From positions 1-29,554 of the forward strand of contig CAZLEV010000027.1 of the NCBI GenBank assembly GCA_964558645.1: 29,554 nt of DNA, written 5' to 3'. Within the stretch, counting starts at the first letter, position 1. Each line of letters starts with the position of its first letter. A program made the position numbers and the translations under genes. Source of the DNA: an uncultured archaeon (lineage in GTDB: Archaea; Asgardarchaeota; Thorarchaeia; Thorarchaeales; Thorarchaeaceae). Under the pieces are notes generated by a model, which saw nothing but the letters and a program-made list of their open reading frames with translations, searched no databases and was not told where the DNA came from. Of this stretch, positions 11,025-29,554 are shown in pieces.

Positions 11025-11170
11025 GATCTCAGCCTTCCTCGTTTCTAATAGACTTGGTCCGATTTAAGTGTGAATGGTGGCGAAGAATGCGGTTTAGATG
11101 GTGAGCGAGAGTCATTTCAGGCTATGCCGGCAGACAGGCAAGATAGGGAAAAGCTCAGAGGCCGAGCCTT

Positions 11171-11629
11171 TTGGCCGCCGGCCCTGCACGAAGAAACGAC
11201 ATTCCTGAGTCGATAAGGAAGAGCTGGCATCACGCGTCTACCTATGGCATGGGTGCCATAGCTTCTGGAGAAGGAGTGCCAAAAACCTTGCGAAAACAAA
11301 GCCCGAAATCATCGAGAGCATCAGGGAGGACAAAAACTACGGATGCGGCTGTCGTGCTGAAACGATGCACATCGCTACGCGAAGACACTGTAGTAAATAG
11401 GGCTGTTCGTGATATGACACAAGGTCAATCCAAGGAAACCTCGTACTGGCTACTGGACACACTGAGAGAACTGGATGTGTTCAGGGAACATCCAAAGCTG
11501 AGAGCTTTGCTGGATAGACACAGCGATGAGATGCGAGGGCGAGTCTATCCTAAGAACATAGACAATCCGTCAGAAACAATCGCAACCTGTCGGTTCCTAG
11601 AGAACGAATGGCGGGCCCCGCCGGATTAG
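11171..11629 (+). CDS. hypothetical protein (5' end uncertain, possibly frameshifted)
   Basis: 152-aa ORF with a helical, protein-like C-terminal half; TTG start; an ATG at 11124 lies in another frame. Confidence 0.4.
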   Translation: MAAGPARRNDIPESIRKSWHHASTYGMGAIASGEGVPKTLRKQSPKSSRASGRTKTTDAAVVLKRCTSLREDTVVNRAVRDMTQGQSKETSYWLLDTLRELDVFREHPKLRALLDRHSDEMRGRVYPKNIDNPSETIATCRFLENEWRAPPD

Positions 11630-11809
11630 AACCAATTCGCTAGTCTGAAACAACAAACTTCTCATTCTGCTCAATGTATGATATCAAACCTAGTTTGAGC
11701 TAAGTGGATAACCACAAGATTGAATTAGTACATTTCCAGAGTCGATTGCGCAAGAGTCAGCTACAACCCGTAAAGGAGCCTGACACTTTAATTTCGGAGG
11801 ATTTCTTAG

Positions 11810-12859: not shown

Positions 12860-12865
12860 TTCTCA

Positions 12866-13492
12866 ATGCCAAGAAGAGTGCTGAGACTTGTACTCGGGGA
12901 TTTGCAGACCGCCATAAGAACAGCAAGACGCAAAGTCATGAAAGCTCACCGACTATACAGGGACGATGGCAGTGGCGAACTCACAAAATCAGATTTCCAA
13001 GACTGGATTTCAGCAGTCTTTCAGAATGTTGTGTCTGCTTGGGAAACCTTTCTGGAGAACGCTTTTATCCTCTATGCTCTTGGAAAGAGATCTCCGAACG
13101 GAACTAGTACGAGTTGTAATGCTTCTTTCAGAACACGAGATGCAGTAAAGCAAATCCTTCGTGGTCCCGCCAGTTATGTCAAATGGAATGACCCTACCAC
13201 TGTCATTCAGTTAGCGGAGAGATACTTCCAAGATGGCACACCCTTCAGGATTCCAATTAGGAACAACCAGCGATTATTGCAGGATATCCTTACGATACGT
13301 AACGCACTAGGACATGGTACCGAAGATGTGTTTGAGAAGTATCAAGCTCTCGTACGTCATGAGCTGGCCCATTATCCAAGTGGACTCATGCCGGTCGACT
13401 TTCTTATGAGGAACCATGGGGCGAACGGCGCTACATATCTGGAATTCTATATACGTGTTATCGAAGTCACTGGTTCCCAGATAGTTCCATAG
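12866..13492 (+). CDS. HEPN domain putative ribonuclease
   Basis: VSAWETFLE helix and RNALGH (Rx4H) motif; 6 bp downstream of the DUF262 gene. Confidence 0.8.
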   Translation: MPRRVLRLVLGDLQTAIRTARRKVMKAHRLYRDDGSGELTKSDFQDWISAVFQNVVSAWETFLENAFILYALGKRSPNGTSTSCNASFRTRDAVKQILRGPASYVKWNDPTTVIQLAERYFQDGTPFRIPIRNNQRLLQDILTIRNALGHGTEDVFEKYQALVRHELAHYPSGLMPVDFLMRNHGANGATYLEFYIRVIEVTGSQIVP

Positions 13493-13915
13493 GTCTGTGG
13501 TTCATTCCTTCTCTGGGGTCATCCTGATAAGCCCAGTAGTAGAGCGCCCAGCATCCCCACTAGACATTCAATAGAAAAGAATCCATTTAGACCGGGTTTG
13601 AGTTGAGTACGAAACCGATCTGGGGGTAACGAAGCAAGAGAGACTCTCGACTCAAAAGATAGGATCATTCATCTCACGCAGGAGAACATGGCTGGCATCG
13701 ATTCAGGCAATCCGTAGATTTCATGACCCCTGTTCTTGTCCGAAGTCATACCATTGAAGCAATCCTAATATCTAGGTTTAAGATTGCCGAGATTGTGCCA
13801 AAACACCAAGCCAGCTCTCAAGTTTCAATCTGATTGCAACAAGCACCGGAATTGAACTAATCCAACAAGGCACTAAAATGTACCAAGACTACCTTATCTA
13901 TTGATGTGAGCAGCA

Positions 13916-16873
13916 CTATTCGCTAAAGTCTGTTAGTCTTGCCTGTCTTTCACTTATGATCTTTGCACCCTTTAGCTTCTTGACGCGTGTGCGTTTTTCA
14001 TCGATGCCCGAAACCATGACCCCCGCCTCAGTTGCTCCTTTCCGAGCTAGAAACATACTCTCCGCAATAGATGCGGTTTCTTCTGCAGAGTCTTCTAGCT
14101 CGAAGAGGGAGAGGATTGCCCTATCCAGTTCCAAAGTACCCGTTTCGCCTTTGTCCACAATCTCCCTGATCACGGCTTCTATTCTGCTCATCTCCTCCTT
14201 GGAAACCTTGCGTGGATCAAGAACTGGCATGTTCTCGGCCTCATATACCTGCAGTCTATTCATTCCGCCACCGGTTGTTCTGCCATGTAGTTCGCGAAAG
14301 ACAAGTCCAAGGCTCGAATTCATGAACCCACATATAACGATAGGCGAAGTGTCTTCCTCCATCTCAATCATATACATTTGACAGTCTGGTGTGGTTCCAG
14401 CATTCAAGAGGCAGACGGGTCTTCTATATTCCCAGTATTCTCTTGATAGCAGGAGGTCAGGTAGAGGTAACGGGCCAAGGTCAAACCAACATCCATTCTG
14501 GCTTCTGTTACTGGTGCACGTGGGTCTTCTTTGGGGTGGTTCGTGAGGAGACCAGTCTTTTTCCCACATACTATGTATTATGTATTCGTAAAGACCTTCA
14601 TGGCCATCGTTCAACAGACTGTTAAGTACATGAATCTCTTCCTGGGTTAGTTCCATTTCCTTCGCGTCGGATGGAAGTGTGTTCGGGTCTAGAGTGCATC
14701 CTTCCAGCCCTTCACTGTTCAACGCTCTCAGTATTTCATTAACATACTCATGCAAATCAAGAACCTGGTATTCAGTATCATCTGCGTTGAACTCAAGGCG
14801 TCGGGCCTGCTTGATGGACTTCATCAGGGGCTTCAGGAATCTCCTGTCAATATTGTAGGACTTGACCAGTTCTCGGTCAAGATAGAAGAAGTCATTGGCG
14901 CCTGTTGTCTTTCCTCGACTTACTTTAGCAATGTCCTTGAGCTGGCATAAGACCTCATGTCCAAGGAGGTCCCAGTAGAATGTCGGAGCATGAACGAACC
15001 GGTTCCATTTCTCCGCTCCCCTAAGCTCACTCTGGGTGAAAGTTATGGTTCGATAGTCTGGGCTATCGACGAGTATACCCGCCTCCATCTGCTTGTTTAA
15101 CATAGCTAAGATATCATCAACTTCCATTGCTTCCTTGACCCTCACGAACTTTGTGATGTTTCCATCACGTTCTCCATCGTCAGAACACTTCTCAAGAAGT
15201 GTGACACATGTTGGCACGAGGGGATCGGTGAACACTCGACGGGCAAAGCTGACAATAGCCCGTATTCTGAAGTTTTCGAGGAGGAATCTCTGGAGCCCTT
15301 CACCATAGCCTGCTGTCAACCACTTGTCCGAAGTGATGAAGCCCATCCGCCCCCCATCCTGTAGGAACTCTGAAGAGTGAGTGAAGAAGTAGACATAGAT
15401 GTCCGACCTCTCGCTCAGTTCTGAGTAGCCAATGCTTGAGAGATGCTCACGGCATTTCTTCTTGTTCCGTATCATCTCTTGCCTGATGTAGGGTGGATTG
15501 GCAACAATGGCACTGATTCCGTCGGTATGACCTCGCGAGGTTTCGTAAAGCTTGCTCGAGATCGGTTTTCTTAGACTTACCTTCTCAGCAAACAATCGTC
15601 CCTGCGAAGGATCAACATTGAAGAAGTCCTCCACCAAGAGAGTGATTCTTCGGGTTTCCTCTTGTAAGTCTTGGATAGCAAGGTTGATTGCTGACAAGTG
15701 CGCTGGAAACCGGTTGATGTCGATGCCGATGAGCCGAGAGAGGATTGTTTCATGATCCGCCTGAAGATTGTATTCTTCCCGAAGTTTCTTTAATTGATTG
15801 TAGGCAACTATCAGGAAGCTACCGCTTCCACAAGCCGGATCAAGCACCACATCTTGAGGTGATGTTACAGTCGCCTTCACAATTAGGTCAACAATTTCGG
15901 GTGGAGTGTAGTACTGACCTAAGTCATGACGTTCTGAAGCGGGTATAATGTCCTCGTAGATATGGCCTATCGTGTCGTACTGGAACCTGTTGAGATCATA
16001 TTTCTCAAGTTCCTCAAGAAACTCACCTGTTTCTTTTGCAGCCCTATCCGACAAATGGACCTCATCGAAGATCGGGTCGTGTTCGTATATAGCTTCGAAG
16101 TCCGCCTCTTTGGTGAATGTCTTGAAGCTCTCTCTCCTCTTATTTGGCTCTCTTAGATTCTGGAGACCAAGATTGGGAACATCATGGCCGGTGTCCTGTA
16201 GGACTTTGTAGAACAGGAGCTTGTTCATCAGAAGGTAAGCGCTCTGTTTTGCAAAACGATTCTGTGTTTCACCCTTCTCCGGACTCCAGCCTTGCTTCGC
16301 GGCCCACTTCTGGAAGACTTCCTCAAAATGCTTCGTCGGGCTCTTGACATACTTGAGCATTTCTTTAGCAAGCCGTTGATGGAACAGCCGAAGACGATTG
16401 ACGAAGGCTCGCGGATCTGGCTCCCAGCCTATCTTTCCGGCACTTAGCGCTGCAACCTGCTCCAAGAGTTCCGAGGCGAATATTCTAGGACTCTTCACTT
16501 CATACGCCCTCGATTTCCTATGTAGAAGAGGAACGCCTTTCTCGAAGGTTCTGAACAGGACAAGAACCTGCCCGTTATAGGTCGCGAAAAAGTCTGCACC
16601 AAGTGCAAAAGCATATTCGGATGCCTGCTGGATGACCCGCGGAGAATAGGGATCCAAGTCTCGGTCAACGCCATGTTTGCTTTCTCTCTTTGCTTCAATG
16701 ACTAACAGGCATCTACCCATCTCATCTTCAACTACAATATCAGCCCGCCGAAGACCTACAGACTTTTCAGGAATTACTGATCCAAAGGAGATTCCATGGT
16801 ATCTAGGACATTTCTCAATCGCATTCTTCAAGTGTCTGTATAGTTCAAAATGGATATCGGCCTCTTTGTTCAA
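13916..16873 (-). CDS. fused restriction-modification enzyme (type IIG-like): HsdR_N-like endonuclease, N6-adenine methyltransferase and target-recognition region
   Basis: RRADIV...VIEAKR...QASEYA...ATYNG nuclease; GQYYTP, LDPACGSGSF, GIDIN and ANPPYIRQE methyltransferase motifs. Confidence 0.93.
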   Translation of the reverse strand: MNKEADIHFELYRHLKNAIEKCPRYHGISFGSVIPEKSVGLRRADIVVEDEMGRCLLVIEAKRESKHGVDRDLDPYSPRVIQQASEYAFALGADFFATYNGQVLVLFRTFEKGVPLLHRKSRAYEVKSPRIFASELLEQVAALSAGKIGWEPDPRAFVNRLRLFHQRLAKEMLKYVKSPTKHFEEVFQKWAAKQGWSPEKGETQNRFAKQSAYLLMNKLLFYKVLQDTGHDVPNLGLQNLREPNKRRESFKTFTKEADFEAIYEHDPIFDEVHLSDRAAKETGEFLEELEKYDLNRFQYDTIGHIYEDIIPASERHDLGQYYTPPEIVDLIVKATVTSPQDVVLDPACGSGSFLIVAYNQLKKLREEYNLQADHETILSRLIGIDINRFPAHLSAINLAIQDLQEETRRITLLVEDFFNVDPSQGRLFAEKVSLRKPISSKLYETSRGHTDGISAIVANPPYIRQEMIRNKKKCREHLSSIGYSELSERSDIYVYFFTHSSEFLQDGGRMGFITSDKWLTAGYGEGLQRFLLENFRIRAIVSFARRVFTDPLVPTCVTLLEKCSDDGERDGNITKFVRVKEAMEVDDILAMLNKQMEAGILVDSPDYRTITFTQSELRGAEKWNRFVHAPTFYWDLLGHEVLCQLKDIAKVSRGKTTGANDFFYLDRELVKSYNIDRRFLKPLMKSIKQARRLEFNADDTEYQVLDLHEYVNEILRALNSEGLEGCTLDPNTLPSDAKEMELTQEEIHVLNSLLNDGHEGLYEYIIHSMWEKDWSPHEPPQRRPTCTSNRSQNGCWFDLGPLPLPDLLLSREYWEYRRPVCLLNAGTTPDCQMYMIEMEEDTSPIVICGFMNSSLGLVFRELHGRTTGGGMNRLQVYEAENMPVLDPRKVSKEEMSRIEAVIREIVDKGETGTLELDRAILSLFELEDSAEETASIAESMFLARKGATEAGVMVSGIDEKRTRVKKLKGAKIISERQARLTDFSE

Positions 16874-17345
16874 ATCCTCACCCGCGTAAATCTGTTCTCG
16901 GCAACTTCTTCACAGAAACTCTGTTGATGATCAGTCCGCCAGTTTCTTTCCAGGTTCAGGTTTTAATCCCCAACCTTGTCGAGCTAATCTGATTCAACGT
17001 TGTCTGATATTCTTTTCGAGATGCTGCGAGAATGTGTACATATACACCTTCCCGCGAAGGTGTATTGGCCCGTTTTGGCCCTATCCGGTTCAAACTAATC
17101 CAAGCTCCAGTGATTATAGGTGGCGACCCCACGGGAAATCGTGGTAGGAGGGGGGAGTTTCGTAATGAGGGCATGTAACGAAAACTAGCCCGCAGGGCCG
17201 CCATGTTTCCGCTGGTCCGTACCACTCGATATTGCTTCTTCACGCTTCCTAATAAAACCCTATCATCTGACAGCGAGGGGTCCTTTTCTAGCTCCCGCCA
17301 ACACAACCTACTGATCACCATTAGAACAACTGCTCGCCAGGAGAA

Positions 17346-18308
17346 ATGAGCAACCGACAACTTGACAGAACCCTCAGAAGAAACAGTCAAATAGGCACGA
17401 TTCCCACCCTGACACCGGGAGTATTGTACGTAATGAGCATTCTGTTCTTTCCTCCAGAAAGGAAATCTGACAACCTCGCCTATCTCATATTTCCCACGAG
17501 CTTCGTGGTCTTTCTTCACTCACTTGGCATCATTAATCTAGAGGGGACCGCTTCAATCGGGGGGGCTGTGATTGGCGTTTCGGCTCTTGCTCTTTTTCTC
17601 TACATCACTGCACCTGTCGACATATACCTTCGGCGACACACGAGAGGAAAATTCCAGGGAAGGAGGCTAGAAAGGCTTGCCATGGCACTCAACGAGTGGT
17701 ACTTCGGACCGGCAGATCGTCACCGGTCCAAGGAGATGTTCAAGAAGGTGGCAAAGACATGGATATCCAACGCGATCTCCAGTTATGCGCTCAGACAGAG
17801 GTTCGGAAGAATTCGCGTCCTATACTATTTTGGAATCAGCTGTGGGTTCTATGTCTTTGCGCTTGCAGTGTTTCTCACCGGCTTGCTACCGTCCATCGGG
17901 CCGATAGCTATCTATCCTCCATTCATCAATACCGCTCGCCAAGCAGTCTACTGTCCGGCTACGATTCTGGGAACAGCCGGTGTCTGGCTGTTTCTATATC
18001 TTGTATACAGGGGCCGGCGGGTATACGGTTCCTATCTTTATCGGGACATTGCATATGTGGCCGAGTATCTTGCAGTGGAGAATCTCAAGGCAGGAGAATA
18101 TCGCACCCTTGTTGATGGAGGTTCTTCGTTTACACAACCCACGAATGGAATCAATGCCGTGAGAATGGCGGTTGATGAGCTAAGGCACTTTGGCAACATG
18201 CTGCTAAGAGGGGACCTTGACACGTTCTCGACAATCTGGGGGAATCAGTGGTCAAAGATACGCAACGAGAAGAACCAACCGCGACGAGAAACTCAAGACA
18301 CCCGATGA
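17346..18308 (+). CDS. hypothetical multi-pass membrane protein (start may be ATG at 17433)
   Basis: Two pairs of TM helices separated by a basic soluble loop; soluble C-terminus. Confidence 0.7.
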   Translation: MSNRQLDRTLRRNSQIGTIPTLTPGVLYVMSILFFPPERKSDNLAYLIFPTSFVVFLHSLGIINLEGTASIGGAVIGVSALALFLYITAPVDIYLRRHTRGKFQGRRLERLAMALNEWYFGPADRHRSKEMFKKVAKTWISNAISSYALRQRFGRIRVLYYFGISCGFYVFALAVFLTGLLPSIGPIAIYPPFINTARQAVYCPATILGTAGVWLFLYLVYRGRRVYGSYLYRDIAYVAEYLAVENLKAGEYRTLVDGGSSFTQPTNGINAVRMAVDELRHFGNMLLRGDLDTFSTIWGNQWSKIRNEKNQPRRETQDTR

Positions 18309-18350
18309 GGGTCACTTTTCAACGTACAACAACACGATATACTGATTACC

Positions 18351-18604
18351 ATGGGCAGAACCGTTCGCACCCTCAGAGATGCCATCAATGTCGAGGACAG
18401 CGATGTAAGCAGGTCAGGCGCACACTCCGACCTGAAGACCGTGAGACACTGGACTGGATTTTCAACGCGGCACGACAGCACGGAGATGCCGGGACCATCT
18501 ACACCGCCCCGCGCATGACCGAGGTCACCATGCTCTTCGCCCTCATCGAGGTTGTCAAGAGGTTGAATGCAATCGAACAAAGGCAGGACTCGAGCATTGA
18601 CTAG
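18351..18604 (+). pseudogene. frameshifted small helical protein resembling the archaeal MGRT-start family found in PolB2 operons
   Basis: ATG at 18351 reads MGRTVRTLRDAINVE; a shifted frame continues QRCKQVRRTLRPEDRETLDWIFNAARQHGDAG...to TAG at 18604; span is 254 nt, one base short of an intact 85 codons. Confidence 0.7.
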
Positions 18605-18624
18605 TCGTTGAACCCCGTAACTAC

Positions 18625-19608
18625 TCATGCCTGATACAGAACTCCTGAAGACTCTGAATTCTCCTTGGCCTCCTTGTAGGGGCGAGTGAAGGTGTCCCAG
18701 TCGGCCGTTGATACTAATCTGTTGATGAGCTGCTTACTCCAATTGATCAGCTTCTCTACGTTTGATATCTTGAATAGGAGTCGAGTCGGACTGAAGTTAG
18801 TCTGGAGATGAATCCTAGAGATCAGTTCGAAAAGGTGCAACTTCTCCCCTGTAATAGGTTCAAGTTTCAGATTCTCTCTTTGTTTGTGAACAAAGCCCAC
18901 TGTGAATTCGAAGGAGATGGATACTCTGCCGCTGCACCCATTCTTCCACTGTAGGTCAATGCGCCCTCCCTTCTCCTGCTGTGAGTAGTCAAGTACGTAG
19001 GCACCAGGAGCCTTGAAAGCATAGGGTTGAATGTGCTGACCGATTGGCGACTTCTTCATTCTGATTTTATCTTTCAGAGGCTTCGGTTCATACTCACCGT
19101 CAAAGGGTTCTCTCCGGTGAGTAATCTCAGAGATTGTAAGAAGCTCGAGAAACGGAACCAAATCTAGGAGCTCTGATGTGGCAGATGTCGGCGATTCGCT
19201 CGCCTTCCTTATGGTCTGAGTGAATTCGTCCCTTTGCTTTTCTGTAGATCGAGTAAACTCGAAAAGGAACTTCTCTGAGGGCGGATATCCCACAACGCGA
19301 TGAGGAAGCCCAGTGTCGCGATCAAAGAAATACGATATCTGGATTTCACGTTCTATCTTGCATGATGGCCGCAGGGTGCGAACTGCTAATCTCCACATTA
19401 TGAGTACCGTGGATAAAGAGGCTAGACCTGCAACACCCCCCCTAGTTGCCCATGTAGTCGGATCTACTGAGATATCATAACTTGAACTGATGAAGTCGGA
19501 TATCAGGTTGAGAGTCAAGCCAAACAGAATCGCTGTGATGATGATATTCCACTGCTCTCCCCGAATCCTCTGAATGCGTTCTAAATGAGATTCTTCCACG
19601 AATATCAA
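18625..19608 (-). CDS. hypothetical protein with two N-terminal TM helices
   Basis: WNIIITAILFGLTLNLISDFI and GGVAGLASLSTVLIMW TM segments, then a soluble domain with a beta-rich C-terminal part. Confidence 0.75.
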   Translation of the reverse strand: MIFVEESHLERIQRIRGEQWNIIITAILFGLTLNLISDFISSSYDISVDPTTWATRGGVAGLASLSTVLIMWRLAVRTLRPSCKIEREIQISYFFDRDTGLPHRVVGYPPSEKFLFEFTRSTEKQRDEFTQTIRKASESPTSATSELLDLVPFLELLTISEITHRREPFDGEYEPKPLKDKIRMKKSPIGQHIQPYAFKAPGAYVLDYSQQEKGGRIDLQWKNGCSGRVSISFEFTVGFVHKQRENLKLEPITGEKLHLFELISRIHLQTNFSPTRLLFKISNVEKLINWSKQLINRLVSTADWDTFTRPYKEAKENSESSGVLYQA

Positions 19609-20055
19609 CTGCTTGAAAAGATGTCTGAAAGTTCATAAATCCCTTCATCATTGGTGTCGGTTTCTAGTTCAGTTGCGAAATATCACTGCAAATCCAGCCG
19701 TCCTTGAGAGTCCAGAACCCATTCCTCTGATACTGGACTGCCATCTCGGACAAATCGCCTGATCCTGTCTTGCCCAATCTCCATGAGCCAAAGTCCGTAC
19801 ATGCCCATCGCCCCTGTTCCCGCATGACCCGCTCAATTATTGCCCGATTGCTTATTTCACAGCGACCTGCCGTGATCCCTATCGCTATCTCCGAGTTTTG
19901 CAGCATCTTCGCGATACTTCGCGACTTTGGGATTGTCAAACACAAGAGCAATCACCTGCACCGCTCCGTCACGAGCAAGGAGATCGATGGAAAGCCACAA
20001 AGAGCTGTACCTTCAAATGCCGGGGTTACTCTGTGGATATGCGAGAGTGTGAAGA

Positions 20056-21204
20056 ATGAACAGTGATGCTGGAAAAGGCAGGTGCAAGGACACCATACAG
20101 GATGCCCTAGAAGGTGTGAGAACGGCACAGGAGTTGCTCGGTTCCAACGAGAACAACAAGACGGGTCTTCGGGCATCGATTCTTGAGTACTTGCAGAACC
20201 TTTCAGAATCACTAAGGAATCTTGAGGCTGAATGGGATTCCGTAGACCATGCTTCAGAAAGTCATGCCCTGACGGTTCACAAGCTTAGAGTCAGTCAACA
20301 CCAAAGAACACCCTTAGATATTGGTAAGATGATTCTTCATTACAGATTATGGGAGAATCAGAATTCCAGTGAGAAGTTGTCTGAAGAGAGCCAGTTCGCT
20401 GAGCTCTTGATGGATGACATTTTCCAAGAGCTGGGTATCGAATCCATTCCTGAGGTTGTCTTTGGTGGCTCCTTTCAAGCCATCGACTTTGGGCCCCTTT
20501 GCCTAGTTATCATACCCTATACTTTCTATCGCAGGTATGACAGATGGGGCGCCATATCGCATGAGATTGGTCACCTCTACTATCGCAGACATCCCATTGA
20601 CCCTGACCAACTAGTCATCCTAGCAGAACGCCTAAGCGAGAGAATCCCACAGGCCTATACCTCAGAGCGACAGAAGGATATCGAGAATATGCTGGGGAAT
20701 TGGGTGTTTTGGTGGAGTTCAGAGTTGCTCTCTGACTTGGTCGGAGTGTCCATCTTCGGCTTACTCTATCTTCTAGACCTGAACCAACTTGACAATAGGT
20801 TGAACTTCTCCACGGTATCTCGGTCACATCCTCCCACAAGCCTCCGACTAGCATGCATTCGAGTATTCTTGGAGATGAAAGGTGTGAAGCTGCCGGAATC
20901 AGATGATATCTTCGAAAGCGATGAACCTATCCCTCAATGGATTGATGAAGTTGCCTACTCTCTTCTTGAGAAAGAGATAGCTCCAGTGTTCATCGAATGG
21001 GCAATGGATCAAGATGCCTACTGTGACATGATCCTGAACTGGCAAGCCATATTGGAGCTTGGCAGTAGTGAGATTCCATCCGATACGAGCCTAAGCACCA
21101 TCTTTGCTGCCTTAGGCATCGCGTCAGTCCATCATGATGTGGAGGACATATTCCAGCAACTCAAAAGGAAACTCAAGGATAAGGGCAGGCTACCTAGGAC
21201 ATAA
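20056..21204 (+). CDS. putative zincin metallopeptidase (HExxH)
   Basis: ISHEIGH, downstream ELLSD (ExxxD) and SHPP...R, a gluzincin/M48-like arrangement. Confidence 0.7.
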   Translation: MNSDAGKGRCKDTIQDALEGVRTAQELLGSNENNKTGLRASILEYLQNLSESLRNLEAEWDSVDHASESHALTVHKLRVSQHQRTPLDIGKMILHYRLWENQNSSEKLSEESQFAELLMDDIFQELGIESIPEVVFGGSFQAIDFGPLCLVIIPYTFYRRYDRWGAISHEIGHLYYRRHPIDPDQLVILAERLSERIPQAYTSERQKDIENMLGNWVFWWSSELLSDLVGVSIFGLLYLLDLNQLDNRLNFSTVSRSHPPTSLRLACIRVFLEMKGVKLPESDDIFESDEPIPQWIDEVAYSLLEKEIAPVFIEWAMDQDAYCDMILNWQAILELGSSEIPSDTSLSTIFAALGIASVHHDVEDIFQQLKRKLKDKGRLPRT

Positions 21205-21482
21205 CGAGCGGCATCGACTTCATCGTTTTGCACAGAGTGGACCGTGTCATTGATAGAGCAAATGCACAAGAGAGATGACAGCTAGGTTTGTTCTGAACTT
21301 TGACGGAGTTTCGCGTGTGCTACACGAGCACAGACTACCTGAGAGGAAATCATGGTTTGAAGGGTCGTCGATTGCACGAGTGGCATACCTAGTCAGGGGT
21401 TATCGAGTATGTGCGCCATTTCTTACCTATAGTTCAGTGGAGTTGCCCATGCAATACGTCAAGCGTTAGCGGAAAGTACTTC

Positions 21483-22343
21483 TCACCGTCGTTCAATTCG
21501 CGGTGCCATGGCCAGTGTGACCTTCCCGGTCCGAGCAACCAGCGGCTGCTCCGCGGCATACTCCAGTGTGACCTGCAGGGTATCAGGCACGAAGTGCGAA
21601 ACCAGATCGAGCAGTCGCAGGGCATAGAACGCCCTGACCTCTCGAAACTCTAGCTCATCATCCTCTTCCTCTCGGAACCCGAGGTTCTCCACACCCAGCA
21701 ACCCCTCGCTTCGGTGCAGGAAGACTGTTTCATCCTCTCCACTCTCGCCAGCATAGACGAAGGAGAAGTCCCCCTGAGTGCTCGTGACCAAGTACGCATG
21801 GTCGAACTGCTTCTTGCTCCGCAGCATCGACCTGAAGGCCTTCCCCGTCATCCGGATCCGCGCCTCGTGCTTGAGACGTGGGGCCTTAGCGGGCTCCACT
21901 GAACCATCAAGCAGGGTGACCCGTCCGACGCCATCCTCGCCCTCGACTTCCATTACACTCTCCCCGATACGGATGCTCAGCCGATTGGTACACAGCTTCA
22001 GCGCGTTCTTCAGCTCTGACAGGCCGACAGCCACAGTCCGTTCTTCGCTGATCGTGTACCGTTTGAACCAGTCTGCAGGGATGTCCACACTGATGTAGCA
22101 GGTGCGCTCAGAGTTCAACTGGGAGAGATGTATTCCCTCTCTGTCCAGCATGAAGATGCCCTCATAGAGGAGTTTCTCCAACCCTCTGATGATTCCAGCG
22201 AATTTCCGCACCTTGAACCGTCCGATGAACAGAATCCGTGTCCCCTGCTCTCCCGTAACCGAAGCTGTCATGAGGTCATGTCCTCTCTTGCACCTATAAT
22301 GTCCCCAGAAAACTGATTGTACAGGGAACTGATTCCACGACAT
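21483..22343 (-). CDS. pcna: divergent PCNA (DNA sliding clamp) homolog
   Basis: LLYEGIFMLDREGIHLSQLNSERTCYISVDIPADWFKRY...VAVGLSELKNALK...FYALRLL...LEYAAEQPL...LAMAPRIE follows the archaeal PCNA pattern end to end. Confidence 0.88.
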   Translation of the reverse strand: MSWNQFPVQSVFWGHYRCKRGHDLMTASVTGEQGTRILFIGRFKVRKFAGIIRGLEKLLYEGIFMLDREGIHLSQLNSERTCYISVDIPADWFKRYTISEERTVAVGLSELKNALKLCTNRLSIRIGESVMEVEGEDGVGRVTLLDGSVEPAKAPRLKHEARIRMTGKAFRSMLRSKKQFDHAYLVTSTQGDFSFVYAGESGEDETVFLHRSEGLLGVENLGFREEEDDELEFREVRAFYALRLLDLVSHFVPDTLQVTLEYAAEQPLVARTGKVTLAMAPRIERR

Positions 22344-22349
22344 ATCCTC

Positions 22350-25300
22350 TCAACGTCCATTGACTCTATTCGAGTCGTCACGGATCTGTCGCTCAAGGGC
22401 TCGCATCTTGGTGGTCAGGGTATCTACAGTGATATTCTCTCCACGTTTTCGGAGCTGCTCCAAGAGCCCTCTCGATTCCTCAAGGTCTCTCCTAGTCTCA
22501 TCCTGACGTTCAATGTCAAGATGAAGGAGGCAGTGGGCCCTGAGGATGAGTCCTCTCGCAAGAGCCTGAAGGACGATGATGTCGATCAGGTTCTCCTCCC
22601 TGAGCAGACTGACCCCCTCCTCTAGGAGCTGCAGCGCCTCCGTCAGATGCCCCCTCTCAGCGCGAAACTGACCGTAGTCGATCAGCGTCTTTGCTAGATA
22701 CTTCAGCTCCTCAGGCGCCTCTAGAGCTTCCTCTCTATATTCTGTGATGACTTCTTCGTAATCCCTCGCGAGTACATCGTCCTCATTTACGGCCATGTCA
22801 GAGAGATCCGCTCCCTCACGGATTGCCTTGAGCGCCTCCTGTACCTCCCCCTGATTCTCAAGAGAGTACGGCCAGGCCCTGAACTCCTCATGGTCAAGTA
22901 CCTCAAGGAGTTCCTCTACCCCCTCAGCGGTGAGACTGATAGACTCCACCCGCTTCAATGAGCCATCCCTCTCCACCCTGCTGATGACCAGGGTAGACTC
23001 CTCCACTCCGTGCTGGACCTCCCCTCTGCATATCGGAGGTGTGTCCCTCCAGCCACGACTCTCCAGCTCATCCCTGAGCTCTGCCATTGAGTCCTCCAAC
23101 CCATCAAGATGTCCGAGAGGCACCACAGCGGCGACGTCTTGCTTGAACGCCTCGAGGACGGTATCAACGCTGGAACTAGGATCAGGCTGAAACGTATAGG
23201 TCTGGTCCAGCCATGCTCGCCGAGAGGAGAGTTCCACGATGCTCCACGTCAGCCGGTCTTCGCGTGAGACATAGCTCCACCGGACACCCCACGAGCCACG
23301 ACTCCAGTCGAAGGCATCCCGATCCACCTCTGCCAGTGCATGAGAGAGGGCAGGATACCGTTCCACCTGTGACGCACTGAGGTCCAAGTGGCCTGACACG
23401 TCCAGCTCCACCTCGTGGCGAAGCCGGTTTTTTGTGTCGATGAGCTGTTCGCACTCGGCAAGGAGCCCCACCTCGTACAGAGAGGGAGAGGCCTCTTCGA
23501 GGGATCTGAGGGGTGAGTCATCCTCCAGTCCCTGAAGCTGCAGCCGAAACCCGCTTCCACTCCTCTCAGTCCATATCGTCAGCGTCACATCCCCGCCCGC
23601 CGATGCGGCCAACAACTCAGCGCAGCTCTCTGGATAGGAGTAGTGGTCAGGGAGAAACCTGCTCTTCAAGACCAGCGGGATGAGGCAGGTCAGGGAGTCA
23701 TCCGTGTACGTGATGTCCTCTTTGTGGTCCCACGTGACCGCCCCGGCAGCAGTGTCGTATCCAACCCCTCTTCGGATGGGATAGCGGAGGACCCCCACCA
23801 GCTCATCAGTGTCGCTGAACTCCTCCTCCACAGAGATGCCATCCCCCGTGAACTGGACCACATACACCCCTCGACGAGGATCCACAGAGACCTCCAGCTT
23901 GACAGGCGTGACGGGTCTCTCTAGCTGGCCAAGCTCGCGAAGATACTGGTCCACTGCCTGACCGGGGTCACTGTCTGGTGTTGGCGGGATGAGCAGACCC
24001 TGGGTGATATCGGGGACCGTGAAGGGATCAGTGACCCTCAGCCAGGGAATGGTTCGCTGGTTCTTGTCGGGGTATCCGTGGGTGAGGAGGTACGGCCACC
24101 ACTCATCATCCTCACTGGGCAGCCAAAGTATCCTGTGCTCAGCCACATCCGAAAGCATGATGGTCGTGCGTTCCTCCGAGCTTAGAGCACTCCTCGAGTA
24201 CTCCCTCAGTGAGCCTGCGTCCATGTCACATCGATACCACCTCGGTCGGAGAGACGCATCGGCCCCGGTGGTGACCAAGCCTGAGACCATCTCTCCCCGC
24301 TGGTCAGGAAACACCAGGAGGCCTTTGCTGCTATCTCCCTCCTCCCACCAGATGATCTGGCCGGTGGATGCCTGTGAGAGGGAGGTCTCCGGGATGTTCC
24401 GGTCAGATAGAGTCCGTGCGCGGGACCGGAGGCTCCGGTAGATCGTATGCAGGTCGTACTTCGAGGTGACGCTGCTATCCCTCGAGCGAAGTCCCATCTG
24501 GTAGAACGTCCACTCAGCCACCGCTGCCCACAGCGTCTCGTAGTGACAAGAGTTCTCCTCCTGCGCAGCCGCGCAGACCATAAGGAACAGGTTGTTCCCA
24601 TACAGCAAAAGAGCATCCGGAATCTCTTTTGTGATGGTCTCCAGACGTTTCCTGTTGTCGGAGTTCAGGAGGTCGAGAAGCTGCTCCCGTCCGGGTCGGA
24701 GACTCTCCCAGACCTGAGATAGGGATGTCTCTGAGAGGATGATATCTCGGACCAAGGACAGGGTATCCAAGTAGGCATCGCCATCCCCAGTGTCTTCAGA
24801 GTCTGAGAGGACATCCTGACAGAGGTCGGCAATCTCCTCGCAGACACCCTTGAGGGTCCTGCCTAGGGGTCGTGCTGCCAAGTATCTTGCAGTTGTGAGG
24901 AAACGCTTGAGTTCCCATCTCCGTGTGCTACAGCTGTCAAGAGTCACAGCATCCAATTCAGAAGGAACTGGTGGGCGACAGAGGCTACGAGGCCGGGCAG
25001 GTATCTCAGGCCGGGGTGTGGGGTTCCGTTCATAGAACCACCGCCGTGTGATCTTCCCAGACTCCACATACCTGTCCTTAGAGCGTACGGGGTCTGGAGG
25101 CGGTCGAGCCGGTTGGAATCGGAAACGTTGCCGCTGGGTACTTGCCCTTGCGGAGCTGATACCTTGCACCAGTATCTGCGGAATCTCCAGTGCCTCCTGC
25201 GGTTGCTGTTCGTGGCCGTCTCTCGCACGGTATAGACTCGGAACCAGACTGCAGGACTGCTCCATGACCCTGTCCAGGGTGTCCATGGTTAGGTTCCCCA

Positions 25301-27974
25301 GCCCGGACTGGATAGAGGAGAGATTGATGCTCCGCGCATACATCCTGGAGTCGTTCACCACGTGCCTTGCCACATCATCCTGTGAGAGTGACCCATGCCT
25401 TGAGGAGGCCCCCCGGAATCGCTCTGCTGCACCCACGAGGTGAGGGACGTGGATGGTGGTCCTCCACGGAAGTGCCGATGTGGGAGTGTCCTGTACGATG
25501 ACTCGCACGTCTTCGCGCCAGGGCGTAAGGTTGCCGAAGATACGCGGAGGAGACGGGAGGTTATAGATCACCTCGTCAAGGTGCGTCCTGCGGGGAGAGT
25601 CGTGGCGGAAAGGTTTGATGCATCCTCGCTGACAGTCTGCGGAGGTCAGGGTATCCTCAGTACCGGTATCGATCCAGATGATGTTCGTGTCTGTGGAGGG
25701 GAGCGTATCCAGTAGCTGCACTTCCAGGGTGCGGAGGAGATGGCGGGAGTGGGTTGGAATCATCTTACGCAGTTCATCCCACCCGTCCACAACGATGATC
25801 TTCTCGCCCTCGGTCTCAACAGCATTGCAGATAGTGGTTAGCATGCCCTCTATCGACTGGTTCTCGCCCCTCAGGAGTTTCTCTGTGTGAACATGAAGGT
25901 CAACGAAGGAGATGGCCTCGACCTCAGCTACCAGCTCGCCGTGTTCCGACCGGGATATCCTCTTCTCGGCAAGGAGTCTGTCAAGTCCAAACCGCAGGTT
26001 GGTCAGCTGGCCGGTCTGGTAGTCCCCAAGCAAATCCAGCCAAAACACACCTATCTCTTGCGATGAGGCCTCTCTGCACTCTCTTATGTGGTGGAGAAGA
26101 TGCCAGTTCGATGACTGCCATGCGGACGTCTTACCTGATGAGGTCGGAGTGGGAACGGACACGTAGACCGTGAGTATGCGGTCGTCTGTAATGCGATCTG
26201 CAAAGGGGTCCTCGGAGACCAACTCAGCCGGAGGGGCTCTCTGAGAGAGGATTCTATCAGGGCCTGCGTCTGGCAGAAGGAGCAGCGCCACCCGGGGAGA
26301 AGGCAAGATACTGTCTGTATCAAGCACCTGTGAGATAGTCTTTGGTGGGGCCTGGAAAGTGTCACCTGTCAGTTCCACCAGCAGGTTTTCGATGAGAGTC
26401 TGAAATGCTGAGTATGCATCAATGGGAATCTGGTCAGCATCCAGGACGATGACCCCCTTCCAGAGAGAGGTGGGCGGTGTCGGGTCGAAGTCCGCCGTGC
26501 GCTTGTACTCCCTGATGATGGCCTGTTCGTACGCATCGAGCTGACCTTTTGTGCTCTTCTTCGGCGGTGATGTGAGCAATGCATTCCACTCGCCCCCTGT
26601 GAGTGCCCTCTTCCACGCAAAGAAGGCGGGCGCATACTCGTTCTCCTCTCTGCTCCCCACCTCAACACCGTAGAGGTTGATATCGAAGGCACTCTTGGTC
26701 TTGACCTCAAGAATCATGATCGGTGTCCAGATGGTCCGCTTCTCGAGCTCTCGGCGGAGGAAGAACACGAGGTCAGCCTGTCCCCGTCGTGAGTCTACGG
26801 GAAGCTCTGCGACAGCCAAGACGGAGGAGGGCTGGTCCAACATGGTGTCCCCGGCAAAGACCACCTGCTTCAGTGAGGCAGGGTGGTGGAAGCCCGAGAG
26901 GAGGATCCTGTGCCAGCGGTTGCCCTCCTGTGAAGTCGATGAGGAGAGCTGGTCAGTGAGCTTGTCGGCATCCCGTTCCACCACAGTCCCGGCATCGATC
27001 TGGTCCTTCATGCTCTGATAGAGTGTCATCTCGCCCTCATCCACCGTCTTTTGCGGGAGACATTTTACCGCCTTACGGATATCCCCAAGAGTGATTGGCG
27101 ATGGTATATCTAGGGACCGAGTGATCGACTGTCTCTGCCCGGCATGAAGTCCGTACAACGCTCTGATCTCCAGTACGATCTCTCGGAGTTCCCTGTTGGC
27201 ATCCCGGTTGAAGTTGGGTCGGCCTGTGGCCCTCTCAGTGTAGACCCAGTCGAGGAAGGGCCGCAGCCGGTGGATCAGGAGTCGGATGTAGCGGTGTGCC
27301 TCAGTGCGAGGAACGCTGTAGATGAAGCACTGCCTGCAGAGCTCGACGACGTGGGCGCGGATCATGTCGACAAAATCAAGGCTTGGGAGGGTGGGGTGCG
27401 CAAGGTAGACCTGCGGGGTCTTTGTTGTCCCGCTGTAACCGGCCTTCCAGGAGATCTCGGTGTTCTTGTCGAAGTCATCTGGCGGGTACAGACCCTTGGC
27501 CTTCAGCCGGTTGACGAGGGCTAGAGAATAGACCTTCACCGTGCCATCCGGGAACCTTGCTATCTGGAAGACCCGTGGTTCAGGGAATGGGTACCGTGTC
27601 ATGGCCAGGTCACGGAGTCGTGCTCCCGCGTAGTTCAGCAAGGCATTCAGGGGCCCCACTGTCCCCTCAGTCCAGTCGTAGACCCGCTTGAGTTCCGTGT
27701 TACCGTAGGGTACGGTGCTGTGCCACACGAACTGAAGAAACGACTTCCGCATGTTTGGCTCGGTGTTGTTGAGAACCAGATAGTCCTGCCTCTTACCTTC
27801 TTGAGCCCTCAGTGCAGCGCGGACAGCATCCCACATCTTTGAGGCAGAGCAATGGTACTTCGCGAGGCCGCCACTGGCTCTAGGGCCAAGGAGGTTGACA
27901 AGGGCCATGAGACCAGCATGCTTCGCTCTCCCCAGCACAACATTCGGGCGAAGTAATCGCGGTCTGCGTCCCAT
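22350..27974 (-). CDS. giant multidomain protein: diverged Cas1 catalytic domain + Cas4/RecB-like PD-(D/E)XK nuclease + P-loop-like domain + unknown region + TPR-like tail
   Basis: Cas1-like E72...KR...PLNALLNY(110)...GLYP...H193-PTLPSL-D200-FV-D203-MIR; nuclease GNRWH...E390...GQAD401...E423VK...Q478LDAY; PTSSGK615TS and IIVVD730GWDE. Confidence 0.75.
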   Translation of the reverse strand: MGRRPRLLRPNVVLGRAKHAGLMALVNLLGPRASGGLAKYHCSASKMWDAVRAALRAQEGKRQDYLVLNNTEPNMRKSFLQFVWHSTVPYGNTELKRVYDWTEGTVGPLNALLNYAGARLRDLAMTRYPFPEPRVFQIARFPDGTVKVYSLALVNRLKAKGLYPPDDFDKNTEISWKAGYSGTTKTPQVYLAHPTLPSLDFVDMIRAHVVELCRQCFIYSVPRTEAHRYIRLLIHRLRPFLDWVYTERATGRPNFNRDANRELREIVLEIRALYGLHAGQRQSITRSLDIPSPITLGDIRKAVKCLPQKTVDEGEMTLYQSMKDQIDAGTVVERDADKLTDQLSSSTSQEGNRWHRILLSGFHHPASLKQVVFAGDTMLDQPSSVLAVAELPVDSRRGQADLVFFLRRELEKRTIWTPIMILEVKTKSAFDINLYGVEVGSREENEYAPAFFAWKRALTGGEWNALLTSPPKKSTKGQLDAYEQAIIREYKRTADFDPTPPTSLWKGVIVLDADQIPIDAYSAFQTLIENLLVELTGDTFQAPPKTISQVLDTDSILPSPRVALLLLPDAGPDRILSQRAPPAELVSEDPFADRITDDRILTVYVSVPTPTSSGKTSAWQSSNWHLLHHIRECREASSQEIGVFWLDLLGDYQTGQLTNLRFGLDRLLAEKRISRSEHGELVAEVEAISFVDLHVHTEKLLRGENQSIEGMLTTICNAVETEGEKIIVVDGWDELRKMIPTHSRHLLRTLEVQLLDTLPSTDTNIIWIDTGTEDTLTSADCQRGCIKPFRHDSPRRTHLDEVIYNLPSPPRIFGNLTPWREDVRVIVQDTPTSALPWRTTIHVPHLVGAAERFRGASSRHGSLSQDDVARHVVNDSRMYARSINLSSIQSGLGNLTMDTLDRVMEQSCSLVPSLYRARDGHEQQPQEALEIPQILVQGISSARASTQRQRFRFQPARPPPDPVRSKDRYVESGKITRRWFYERNPTPRPEIPARPRSLCRPPVPSELDAVTLDSCSTRRWELKRFLTTARYLAARPLGRTLKGVCEEIADLCQDVLSDSEDTGDGDAYLDTLSLVRDIILSETSLSQVWESLRPGREQLLDLLNSDNRKRLETITKEIPDALLLYGNNLFLMVCAAAQEENSCHYETLWAAVAEWTFYQMGLRSRDSSVTSKYDLHTIYRSLRSRARTLSDRNIPETSLSQASTGQIIWWEEGDSSKGLLVFPDQRGEMVSGLVTTGADASLRPRWYRCDMDAGSLREYSRSALSSEERTTIMLSDVAEHRILWLPSEDDEWWPYLLTHGYPDKNQRTIPWLRVTDPFTVPDITQGLLIPPTPDSDPGQAVDQYLRELGQLERPVTPVKLEVSVDPRRGVYVVQFTGDGISVEEEFSDTDELVGVLRYPIRRGVGYDTAAGAVTWDHKEDITYTDDSLTCLIPLVLKSRFLPDHYSYPESCAELLAASAGGDVTLTIWTERSGSGFRLQLQGLEDDSPLRSLEEASPSLYEVGLLAECEQLIDTKNRLRHEVELDVSGHLDLSASQVERYPALSHALAEVDRDAFDWSRGSWGVRWSYVSREDRLTWSIVELSSRRAWLDQTYTFQPDPSSSVDTVLEAFKQDVAAVVPLGHLDGLEDSMAELRDELESRGWRDTPPICRGEVQHGVEESTLVISRVERDGSLKRVESISLTAEGVEELLEVLDHEEFRAWPYSLENQGEVQEALKAIREGADLSDMAVNEDDVLARDYEEVITEYREEALEAPEELKYLAKTLIDYGQFRAERGHLTEALQLLEEGVSLLREENLIDIIVLQALARGLILRAHCLLHLDIERQDETRRDLEESRGLLEQLRKRGENITVDTLTTKMRALERQIRDDSNRVNGR

Positions 27975-28003
27975 GATACTTCTAGAGTCTTATGTCAAGT
28001 TTA

Positions 28004-28012
28004 CTTATAAAT
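28004..28012 (-). promoter_or_regulatory. putative TATA box for the Cas1-fusion/PCNA operon
   Basis: ATTTATAAG on the minus strand about 30-38 bp upstream of the ATG at 27974, in an AT-rich intergenic region. Confidence 0.55.
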
Positions 28013-28170
28013 AGACTGTGACCAAACAGAGGTTATGAAAAAGGCTTATGATGGCTTATTTTGGCTAAAAAACGTCCCATAATTCTCTATTTGGCTATTC
28101 GTCTTGATACACTTAAAAGTGTTAATGAGATTATATTGTCGGACCCAGACAGAAGAGAGGTGCACGATTG

Positions 28171-29554
28171 ATGACGACGACAGTCCGGCGCCGTCCCCGG
28201 AGGCAGCGGGAATCTGATGAAAGTTCCCAGAAGCAATCGACAATGGATGGCACACTTAAAAATGTTCCATCAACCGCGCACCAGAGTACGGGACTGAAGT
28301 ATCTGGTACAGTCGTTCACCCTCTGTTCAGCGGATAGAGAGGTGAACAAGAAGGGGAAGGGGAAACGACCCGATCCTCGTTACCGGCGATGTAGTCCTAG
28401 ACCTGTACGAAAAGAGATCGAGGCGGCTACCGGGCGAAAGGTCAGAGATATGGACCTCTCTCTTCTGGGTCGATACTTCGAGAAGTATGTAGAGCTCGTG
28501 AATCTCGTTCTCGAGCGTGTGTATGCTTCCCGTGAACGGATTGACTTCCTTGGAGACGAGCTGAACTCCTATCGAGGACAGGGATATGTCCTGTTGAAGA
28601 AGGAGGAGTATCTTGCATACAAGGACAATCCCGATATCAGCGAACAGTGCTTCGAGAGACTCTACAGGAACGTCTTGGAACAGGCGGCCCGGATCATCCA
28701 GTCCAACTGGCTACGGCGTCAGCTCATGAAGGCCGCCATTCGGCTTCTCGATGAGGAACAGAACACACTGTTGCGATTGCTGAGGAACAAGTACATTCCC
28801 TCAGACATGGTAAAGGACGTGCGTTCCAGATGCGAGAGCACGAAGAACAACGGTTCGGGATACTACTATGCCCTGTCTGTCCTGAAACAGCTTCGGCGAG
28901 CTCTTGATGAGCACATCCTGACGGAGAGGGCAGAGTCCCTTGGTTCCAGACCATCGCAGCGGCGACGCGTTCGACGGTACGTCAAGGATGAGACGGAGTG
29001 CTCAGAGACCATGGCTTGCGTTGATGCTCTGCTGCACCAGTTCACCACGGAGGGCTATCCCTTCAAGGTCCCGCGGATGTACTCCCACACGGAGGACTTC
29101 TCAGCAAGCACAGAGAACTCCCCCGGTCAGGGCTACTGGTATTCACAGGACCTGGAGAGGGAAAACGAGGTGCTGTTCTTCCTGAAGCTGCCGGAGGCGA
29201 TGGAGGGAGCGGAACATGATGACTCGCCCTTCCGTACAAGGACGCTCTCGTTCAGGTTTCTTGACTGGCTCCCACGGGCGGCCGCCAAGGACCGAAGGAA
29301 GGGCGATGAGGCAGAGCGAGCTGGGAAGCATATGCGAGCCAAGAAGCTGCGATTCCGGGCCATGAGGTTCGAGGATCAACACGAACAGCTTGTCAACACC
29401 ATCGAGCTTCAACACGCCACCTATCAGCTGGCGAAGTGGAAGAACCGGAAGGATGCGGACCCTGAGAAGATTGCACACCTGAAGGAGAAGGTGCAGTATC
29501 TCAGGAAGTCCAGAACCTGCGGCCCACCTCGCCTCTTGCTTCGTGAGCACAGAG
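28171..29554 (+). CDS. large TnpB/Cas12-like protein, N-terminal part (runs off the window; absent from the ORF track)
   Basis: Manual translation gives 461 codons without a stop from ATG 28171 (GAGGTG RBS upstream): MTTTVRRRPR...KYLVQSFTLCS...LGRYFEKYVELVNLVLE...ERLYRNVLEQAARIIQSNW...GYPFKVPRM...PPRLLLREHR. The ORF itself is well supported; the family call is inferred because no RuvC domain lies in the window. Confidence 0.6.
   Translation, partial: MTTTVRRRPRRQRESDESSQKQSTMDGTLKNVPSTAHQSTGLKYLVQSFTLCSADREVNKKGKGKRPDPRYRRCSPRPVRKEIEAATGRKVRDMDLSLLGRYFEKYVELVNLVLERVYASRERIDFLGDELNSYRGQGYVLLKKEEYLAYKDNPDISEQCFERLYRNVLEQAARIIQSNWLRRQLMKAAIRLLDEEQNTLLRLLRNKYIPSDMVKDVRSRCESTKNNGSGYYYALSVLKQLRRALDEHILTERAESLGSRPSQRRRVRRYVKDETECSETMACVDALLHQFTTEGYPFKVPRMYSHTEDFSASTENSPGQGYWYSQDLERENEVLFFLKLPEAMEGAEHDDSPFRTRTLSFRFLDWLPRAAAKDRRKGDEAERAGKHMRAKKLRFRAMRFEDQHEQLVNTIELQHATYQLAKWKNRKDADPEKIAHLKEKVQYLRKSRTCGPPRLLLREHR

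Follow-up and report, generated by a model that had tools for sequence, protein, structure and literature searches.

The 3′ end of contig CAZLEV010000027.1 (assembly GCA_964558645.1), from an uncultured archaeon of the Thorarchaeaceae (Asgardarchaeota), carries the first part of a gene for an enlarged TnpB/Cas12f-like nuclease, which stands head-to-head with a gene for a giant protein of 1874 amino acids (aa). The whole contig of 29,554 nucleotides (nt), C27 in the numbering used here, was analysed and is referred to as the window; it belongs to a host genome of 3.63 Mb in 37 contigs that is 92.8% complete. A preliminary description of this DNA had pointed to an uncalled open reading frame without a stop codon at the end of the window. 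Such a frame is indeed present on the forward strand, from TTG 28168 or ATG 28171 to 29553 (461–462 codons). It is open through the final base of the window and the gene runs off the contig, the part contained in the window (28171..29554, +) representing the N-terminal 461 codons of a protein of ∼ 720 aa.

The remainder of the gene is most likely located at the start of contig C1, judging from a 30-nt overlap in which the end of the window is identical to the start of C1. The open frame on C1 starts with PRLLLREHR, precisely at the point where the window stops, and joining the two contigs gives a frame of 720 codons, in which the RuvC and zinc-ribbon sequences of the window's copy would occupy C1:1-806, outside the window. 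The assembly is broken at this point because an exact 80-nt repeat, in common with a paralogue on contig C14, crosses the C27/C1 junction. The ratio of non-synonymous to synonymous divergence (dN/dS) between paralogues is 0.16–0.23 for the window part of the gene, with 0.16–0.21 for the window's copy against three of the paralogues, and 0.10–0.16 for the remainder, and these values, together with the database homologues described below, indicate that the frame is a real gene and not a chance one.

The two divergent genes are separated by an intergenic region of 196 nt (27975..28170) that is conserved in all paralogues. It contains two TATA-like boxes, one at 28003-28014 for the giant gene and one at 28129-28138, ∼ 35 nt upstream of the ATG, for the TnpB-like gene; both are putative promoter elements, recognised from the sequence alone. 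A GAGGTG Shine–Dalgarno-like motif (28155-28162) lies 8 nt upstream of ATG 28171, and this ATG is supported as the start codon because it is preceded by both the motif and a TATA-like box. The first 44 codons of the gene display low synonymous divergence.

Protein family, fold and catalytic residues

The preliminary description had noted that RuvC-I is not reached by residue 461, and had proposed that RuvC D-E-D motifs and a zinc ribbon be sought soon after this point. Beyond residue 461 both the C1 continuation and the paralogues P0002-P0004 carry GADRG (D492), E603, HADVNAARN (D696) and a CxxC...CxxC motif. In an alignment of 37 homologues (47–76% identity) residues D492, E603 and D696, together with cysteines C659, C662, C686 and C689, are invariant. 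The RuvC-I aspartate, RuvC-II glutamate and RuvC-III aspartate occur in the order that characterises the TnpB/Cas12 superfamily, all of them outside the window. The zinc-ribbon TNB domain of this superfamily is represented by the four invariant cysteines and by a match to Pfam PF07282 (Cas12f1-like_TNB; residues 627–703, 3.3e-12) that is above the cut-off. NCBIfam NF040570 (guided_TnpB) matches with an E value of 3.6e-20 over residues 486–704 only, in the C-terminal half, with a score below its curated cut-off, the enlarged N-terminal half having diverged too far to be recognised by this model, and there is a weak match to NCBIfam Cas12f2 (1e-15). The 461 residues encoded in the window have, on their own, no Pfam or NCBIfam match.

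A model of the protein was built with AlphaFold2 (AF2) on the alignment of 37 homologues, and has a mean predicted local distance difference test (pLDDT) score of 75.6. A Foldseek search with this model, as had been suggested, returned AsCas12f at E 4e-10. When structures were aligned with VIA-align the best matches were to Cas12f proteins over the full chain (AsCas12f, Un1Cas12f and CnCas12f, Z 18.6–15.7), with AsCas12f giving 307 aligned residues at a root-mean-square deviation of 3.9 (model 42–709 against chain 0–416). ISDra2 TnpB matched at Z 14.5, with 345/362 residues aligned (model 41–713 against chain 1–378), and Fanzor2 at Z 14.4. In the model the WED-REC-RuvC fold spans the whole chain, from residue ∼ 42 to ∼ 710, including the part encoded in the window. 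A RuvC domain is therefore present and the fold is that of Cas12f and TnpB, as the preliminary description had anticipated, and not that of an unrelated family.

The WED-REC order of elements that had been proposed for the window part is reproduced in the AF2 model. A basic disordered tail (residues 1–44) is followed by a first WED strand (45–50), a helical REC of ∼ 200 residues (93–294), further WED strands (309–364), a helical hairpin insertion of ∼ 80 residues within the WED domain (367–447) and the next WED strand (454 onward), and the motifs on which the proposal had been based were found near the expected residues (KYLVQSFTL at ∼ 44, YFEKYVELVNLVL at ∼ 101, YPFKVP at ∼ 296 and PRLLLR at ∼ 453). 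At ∼ 720 aa the protein is also much larger than a typical TnpB, as predicted, and the model attributes the enlargement to the REC, the WED hairpin and a long helical insertion within RuvC. The open reading frame is judged, with a probability of roughly 70%, to be the 5′ two thirds of an enlarged, catalytically intact TnpB of the OMEGA type, a reading that takes in putative RNA guidance, a candidate target motif, a possible homing role and a possible integrase role for the partner. The nuclease is compact (720 aa) and apparently active.

The window's gene is one of several copies. Full-length copies encoding 718–733 aa are located on contigs C14 (89% nt identity), C2 (77%) and C6 (69%) of the same genome; 3′ fragments are present at the starts of C1 and C6 and also on C5, and one rearranged copy is split over C10 and C16. 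In databases the full-length homologues form at least 157 clusters, and all named ones are from Thorarchaeota. A profile search covering 201 genomes of the phylum detected the family in 23 of the 43 other genomes of the window's own Asgard family, usually in several copies, and in 0 of 157 genomes of 26 other families (E 1e-30). The family is multi-copy and, by its dN/dS values, under purifying selection. Three copies in the genome end 96–395 nt from a tRNA gene (His, Lys and Ile; L003:469-542, L005:3696-3772 and L004:1955-2031), and the tRNA-His copy is syntenic in a sister genome (L018). The tRNA gene as a general attachment site was rejected, since most loci are not near one.

Predicted RNA scaffold and stand-alone copies

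Downstream of the stop codon ∼ 35 nt are common to all copies, and the sequences then diverge. The shared part ends with ...GTTTGTCCAAnTTACAATGAACGG in 75 distinct loci, followed by T (58 loci) or C (17 loci) and then by unrelated sequence, and conservation stops sharply at this terminus, ...TTACAATGAACGG, in 75 unique loci. A structured RNA at the 3′ end was among the features that the preliminary description had suggested looking for, and four putative helices, covarying across 50 loci, were placed within the last ∼ 100 nt of the gene and the ∼ 35-nt tail. In these loci 92.3% of cells pair, compared with 30–45% in slid controls; both partners have changed in 11 pairs, and 0 of 500 shuffles match the observed values. 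Compensatory cases include CCCAG/CTGGG changing to CCCAC/GTGGG and GGAC/GTCC changing to GTAC/GTAC. On computational grounds the locus has the feature expected of an OMEGA-type system, namely a 3′ scaffold that ends at the right end of the element and is followed by a variable flank.

A further hairpin (TCCGG, an 8-nt loop and CCGGA; 28184..28201, +) lies at the other end of the gene, within codons 5–11. Its stem covaries in 43 loci, one pair being C-G in 24 loci, G-C in 19 and unpaired in 0, and its sequence resembles that of the hairpin at the gene's 3′ end.

The terminal motif is present in 32 copies in the genome, only ∼ 7 of which belong to a TnpB-like gene. The remaining ∼ 25 are stand-alone units of ∼ 190–215 nt with the same ...TTACAATGAACGG terminus (loci L153-L172; for example C28:25282-25521, C13:97796-98035, C15:41283-41522 and C1:208352-208591), which have only the last ∼ 65 nt in common with the gene copies. 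These orphan units are alike up to a TATA-like box ∼ 190 nt upstream, are followed by a different flank in each case, and carry the GTCCAAGTTTGTCCA motif in inverted form at their left end, in the manner of a miniature inverted-repeat transposable element. The same helices can be placed on the non-coding orphan copies, along with a pseudoknot-like crossing helix, and 80.8% of cells pair compared with 36–48% in controls, for helices that were set by eye and then counted; RNAalifold returned no structure for the orphan copies. The 32 guide-like flanks have no second match in the genome beyond chance level.

The giant partner and its predicted Cas1-Cas4 fold

The gene for the giant protein (22350..27974, −) starts 196 nt from the TnpB-like start codon, in head-to-head orientation. 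The unit that is duplicated between C27 and C14 (22348-29554) comprises exactly the giant gene and the TnpB-like gene, and the divergent pair is also present on C6, where the giant protein is just 37–39% identical. Among the testable loci of other genomes and metagenomes, defined as those in which the 5′ end is complete and upstream sequence extends for 1.5 kb or more, 28 of 60 have a giant gene head-to-head at a distance of 185–324 nt, with protein identity down to 24%. The partner ranges from 1,600 to 1,900 aa across loci and is present for only about half of the family's genes.

The preliminary description had placed the nuclease next to a Cas1, and this is borne out by the predicted fold only. 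The giant protein has no Pfam or NCBIfam match, the Cas1 models (PF01867 and NCBIfam Cas1) included; a profile of its N-terminus against PDB sequences gave only noise; and hhalign against 30 Asgard Cas1 sequences gave a probability of 1.6%, which is not significant, in an alignment that paired the NALLNYG motif. A Foldseek search with a model of residues 1–660 (pLDDT 80) returned weak rows only (Cas1 at E 0.27, and MGME1). In an exhaustive VIA-align search, the 12 best matches to residues 1–261 (nt 27192-27974, −) were all Cas1, at Z 13.3–9.3 (8flj_A 13.3, 4n06_B 12.9, casposase 6opm_A 11.2), values that helical domains can also reach by chance. The Cas1 fold is credited here because the Cas1 rows are uniform and far above unrelated rows, and because of the hhalign motif match. 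The N-terminus is the most conserved part of the giant protein, with E94, N110, N114, H193, D203 and R206 being invariant. The reading of the neighbour as a Cas1 follows from its modelled fold and the invariant E94/N110/N114/H193/D203 set, and the locus has the arrangement of the aCas1-associated Asgard TnpBs, with a diverged Cas1-fold neighbour in a Thorarchaeota genome.

The Cas1-like catalytic domain is followed by a predicted Cas4/RecB-like PD-(D/E)xK nuclease (residues 280–570; nt 26265-27137, −). This region matches Cas4/RecB-type nucleases at Z 7.6–5, with 9kqh_A (7.6) and Cas4 8d3l_I (7.0) ahead of MGME1, AddA, RecE and SSO0001, and a D401...E423xK425 motif is present. Walker-like motifs at residues ∼ 600–800, and the protein-language-model neighbours of the same region (AAA_22/AAA_16 ATPases, score 0.90), point to a probable P-loop ATPase, an assignment that should be taken as a lead only, and the C-terminal part of the protein forms a TPR-like tail. 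The giant fusion is the only candidate for an integrase on the element.

Large Cas1-containing open reading frames in two other Asgard genomes, G041 and G058, were considered as possible relatives and were found to be unrelated to the giant protein. These frames (L060-L062; G041:C5, G041:C4 and G058:C9) encode 1,325–1,367 aa with a Cas1 domain near the C-terminus (PF01867, E 3e-10 to 1e-6). On the other side of the giant gene, 6 nt downstream of it and outside the unit duplicated on C14, is a PCNA-like gene (21483..22343, −). Diverged copies of this gene are present on C8 (86% nt identity) and C1 (77%), and it is itself a multi-copy accessory gene.

Mobility, known systems and alternative explanations

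In a sister genome (core ∼ 90–95% identical) two copies of the family are present where the window's genome has none, and in both cases the two genomes become alignable again with the first base past ...AACGG. In the other direction, the sequence that flanks the window's own copy (C1:836 onward) has a 95% identical, unbroken counterpart in the sister genome. Over these three occupied/empty comparisons homology resumes at, or no more than 2 nt from, the right end, and each of the empty sites has GGG|T at the point of insertion. The left flank of the empty site of the window's copy corresponds to C18:...39735, and overlaps between contig ends chain C18 to C31, C31 to C27 and C27 to C1; this makes the window's copy the last gene at the right end of a ∼ 58-kb insertion. 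All of the window appears to belong to this strain-specific island (C18:39736-57775, C31, window 1-29554 and C1:1-837), which lies between ...CCAGGGG and TAAT... and has GGTAAT at both junctions. Window positions 2401-22400 are missing from the sister genome. A comparison of the two island ends revealed no terminal inverted repeats (local alignment score of 16, against up to 29 in shuffles), and a split host gene around the C14 copy received no support. The 92.8%-complete genome has no match to Y1 TnpA (PF01797) or to a serine recombinase (PF00239). Many TnpB genes lack a TnpA, and its absence therefore does not exclude membership of the OMEGA TnpBs.

The nuclease has in common with the TnpB of IS200/IS605 and IS607 elements (ISDra2 TnpB, PDB 8h1j) the WED-REC-RuvC-TNB fold and the D-E-D triad. 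As with the omega RNA of those elements, the predicted scaffold reaches into the 3′ part of the gene, stops at the right end of the element and would take the flank as guide, and stand-alone scaffold copies occur. In contrast, the protein is ∼ 320 aa larger than ISDra2 TnpB (REC, WED hairpin, RuvC helical insert and basic tail), its partner is a 1,600–1,900-aa Cas1-Cas4 fusion with no Y1 or serine TnpA found, and the element end is the border of a ∼ 58-kb island and not of an insertion sequence of 1.5 kb. Cas12f proteins provide the best structural matches, and the TNB domain belongs to a Pfam family named after Cas12f1; however, the nuclease is 200–300 aa larger than Cas12f and no CRISPR array was found. 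Casposons, whose hallmarks are a family B polymerase, terminal inverted repeats and a 14-15-bp target duplication, are likewise elements with a Cas1-family integrase, and a casposase is among the matches to the giant N-terminus. Here, however, the island ends have no inverted repeats and at most a 6-nt repeat (GGTAAT) in place of the 14-15-bp duplication, and the Cas1 domain is part of a fusion with a Cas4-like nuclease and ∼ 1,300 further residues. No PolB was seen among the open reading frames of the window, C18 and C31 not having been searched for it.

Cas1-associated TnpBs of Asgard archaea have been divided into two groups, Cas1H-Asgard-1 and Cas1H-Asgard-2, with Cas1 proposed as the transposase and the loci as a transposon family; in these loci tnpB is followed by a hypervariable stretch that lies between a conserved T and GTTCACTCA (Altae-Tran et al. 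2023, PMC10691335). A later account (Koonin and Makarova 2022, PMC8730458) cites a description from 2020 of highly diverged Cas1 homologues in Asgard archaea, which may belong to new mobile elements. The present locus resembles these aCas1-TnpB loci in its Asgard host, in a TnpB adjoining an extremely diverged Cas1 and in a variable region after a conserved T, which is found in 58 of 75 loci, but it differs in that the published GTTCACTCA is absent from the 720-aa family, with no occurrence within 110 nt.

A second TnpB family of ∼ 561–574 aa was observed in the same genome (C2:428190-432761, L143; C26:603-2321, L144). It is 26% identical to the 720-aa family over 154 aa only, and its RuvC-II region looks rearranged. 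On C2 it stands head-to-head with a distant paralogue (25–28% identity) of the giant protein, and ∼ 100 nt past the stop codon a short variable stretch is followed by GTTCACTCA. Cas1-linked TnpBs are thus represented by two families in this genome, which agrees with the two published groups, and the published account of the hypervariable stretch may apply to only one of these groups.

The following sequence of events can be proposed for the 720-aa family. A guide RNA scaffold would be encoded by the last ∼ 100 nt of the gene and ∼ 35 nt past the stop codon and would end at ...TTACAATGAACGG, with whatever DNA comes after the right end acting as the guide. The TnpB gene is paired divergently with the giant Cas1-Cas4-(ATPase) fusion, the candidate integrase. 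By analogy with the TnpB of IS200/IS605 and IS607, the nuclease–RNA complex may recognise the unoccupied site, through a GGG-type motif just 5′ of the guide-matching DNA, and a cut at this site, repaired from an occupied copy, would keep or spread the element. The ∼ 25 stand-alone, promoter-bearing scaffolds could supply extra guides in trans. That the enlarged TnpB, the giant fusion and the ∼ 25 scaffold genes form one system, moving or maintaining islands of tens of kb in Asgard archaea, is offered tentatively and is rather unlikely to hold as a whole. If true, it would constitute a transposon-borne, array-less counterpart of CRISPR adaptation and interference, whose guides would be distributed among numerous genes with one guide each.

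Cas12 descends from TnpB, CRISPR adaptation relies on Cas1 as its integrase, and Asgard archaea are the closest archaeal relatives of eukaryotes. A fixed pair of TnpB and Cas1 genes without an array bears on how the two halves of CRISPR systems met, and also on the role of Cas1 outside CRISPR. Asgard Cas1-TnpB pairs were reportedly described by Makarova et al. in CRISPR J in 2020. The association is already published (2020, 2023), and the value of the present analysis lies in anatomy, not discovery; to what was known it adds the predicted Cas1-Cas4 fold of the partner, the scaffold and the exact point at which it stops, empty sites reading GGG|T, the setting within an island and the orphan guide-like genes. 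No experimental test of Asgard Cas1-TnpB systems was found in the literature consulted. The family is directly testable, since its scaffold end is well defined, a GGG-type motif is available as a target candidate and natural guide genes are numerous.

Several points weigh against the reading of the gene as part of an OMEGA-type, mobile TnpB. The join between C27 and C1 is based on the 30-nt overlap plus elimination, and the guided_TnpB score is 72.6 bits against a curated cut-off of 100. The copies within the genome are only 69–93% identical, and therefore give no sign of very recent transposition. The left ends are not uniform and do not delimit the moving unit: at two sites the flank is shorter in the sister genome, by 207 nt and by 1.1 kb, and other genes stand to the left of the pair there. 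Pairing was counted in the very sequences from which the helices had been drawn, which favours these helices, and three of the four gene-linked helices overlap coding sequence (helix 2 entirely). In addition, the like hairpins at both gene ends and the repeated GTCCAA could be DNA sites of a recombinase, instead of or besides RNA elements. In its strict form, in which hairpins and GTCCAA repeats are recombination sites like the ends of IS605/IS607 and no guide RNA is made, this last alternative is very unlikely. Hairpins at both ends are the layout of IS200/IS605 left and right ends, and similar hairpins (stem YCCRG, 8-nt loop) do lie at both gene ends on the same strand, with an inverted GTCCAAGTTTGTCCA copy at the left end of the orphan units; however, no Y1 HUH transposase or serine recombinase was found in the genome, and the orphan TATA box is ∼ 190 nt upstream of the end, as for an RNA gene. 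The DNA-site and RNA readings are in any case compatible, because the RNA scaffold of a TnpB system normally coincides with the right end.

It is highly improbable that the protein is a type V CRISPR effector, whether a compact Cas12 or a true array-using TnpB-to-Cas12 intermediate, with Cas1-Cas4 as its adaptation module. Its size is within the compact Cas12 range, its best structural matches are Cas12f, the weak NCBIfam Cas12f2 match (1e-15) points the same way, and Cas1 and Cas4-like folds are encoded next door, but no run of three or more 20-mers spaced 45–95 nt was found in the window or in 911 kb around 95 loci of the family, no cas2 was seen, and the genome's ordinary Cas1 is on another contig. 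The copies are moreover dispersed with differing flanks, and a single sharp boundary followed by unique flank is the pattern of a transposon. The preliminary description had compared the protein with TnpB-to-Cas12 intermediates; it is an enlarged TnpB/Cas12f-type nuclease, but the term is unsupported in its CRISPR sense because no array was found in the 911 kb, and the protein behaves as a transposon-type (OMEGA) TnpB. An exapted TnpB, which together with the giant protein would serve the host or the island (in defence, gene regulation or the upkeep of the island, for example) with guides from the orphan scaffolds, is unlikely. The copies are old and kept intact under purifying selection, one of them is syntenic beside the same tRNA-His in the sister genome, the ∼ 25 orphan scaffolds are equipped with a TATA box of their own, and the pair resides on a ∼ 58-kb island with a type IIG restriction-modification gene, GmrSD and PIN genes; many TnpB exaptations are described in PMC10691335. 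Set against this, the guide-like flanks of the 32 scaffolds find no second genomic match beyond chance, the giant partner accompanies only about half of the family's genes, and insertion sites that differ between sister genomes, with boundaries exactly at the right end, are indicative of mobility, as the OMEGA-type reading would have it.

Genes of defence type are found as cargo elsewhere in the window. They comprise a type IIG methylase-endonuclease of 985 aa that is Eco57I/MmeI-like (13916-16873, −), a protein with a GmrSD N-terminal domain (11810-12859, +) and a PIN-domain gene (9336-9740, −). An 816-aa protein (643-3093, −) combines a sacsin-type (HATPase-like) domain with a NO VEIN C-terminal domain, a combination known from defence-island proteins. 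Finally, two non-coding repeats of ∼ 200 nt (17118-17320 and 18339-18569) have 84–91% identical copies on C4, C5, C18 and C31, and those on C18 and C31 sit at the contig ends that link to the window.

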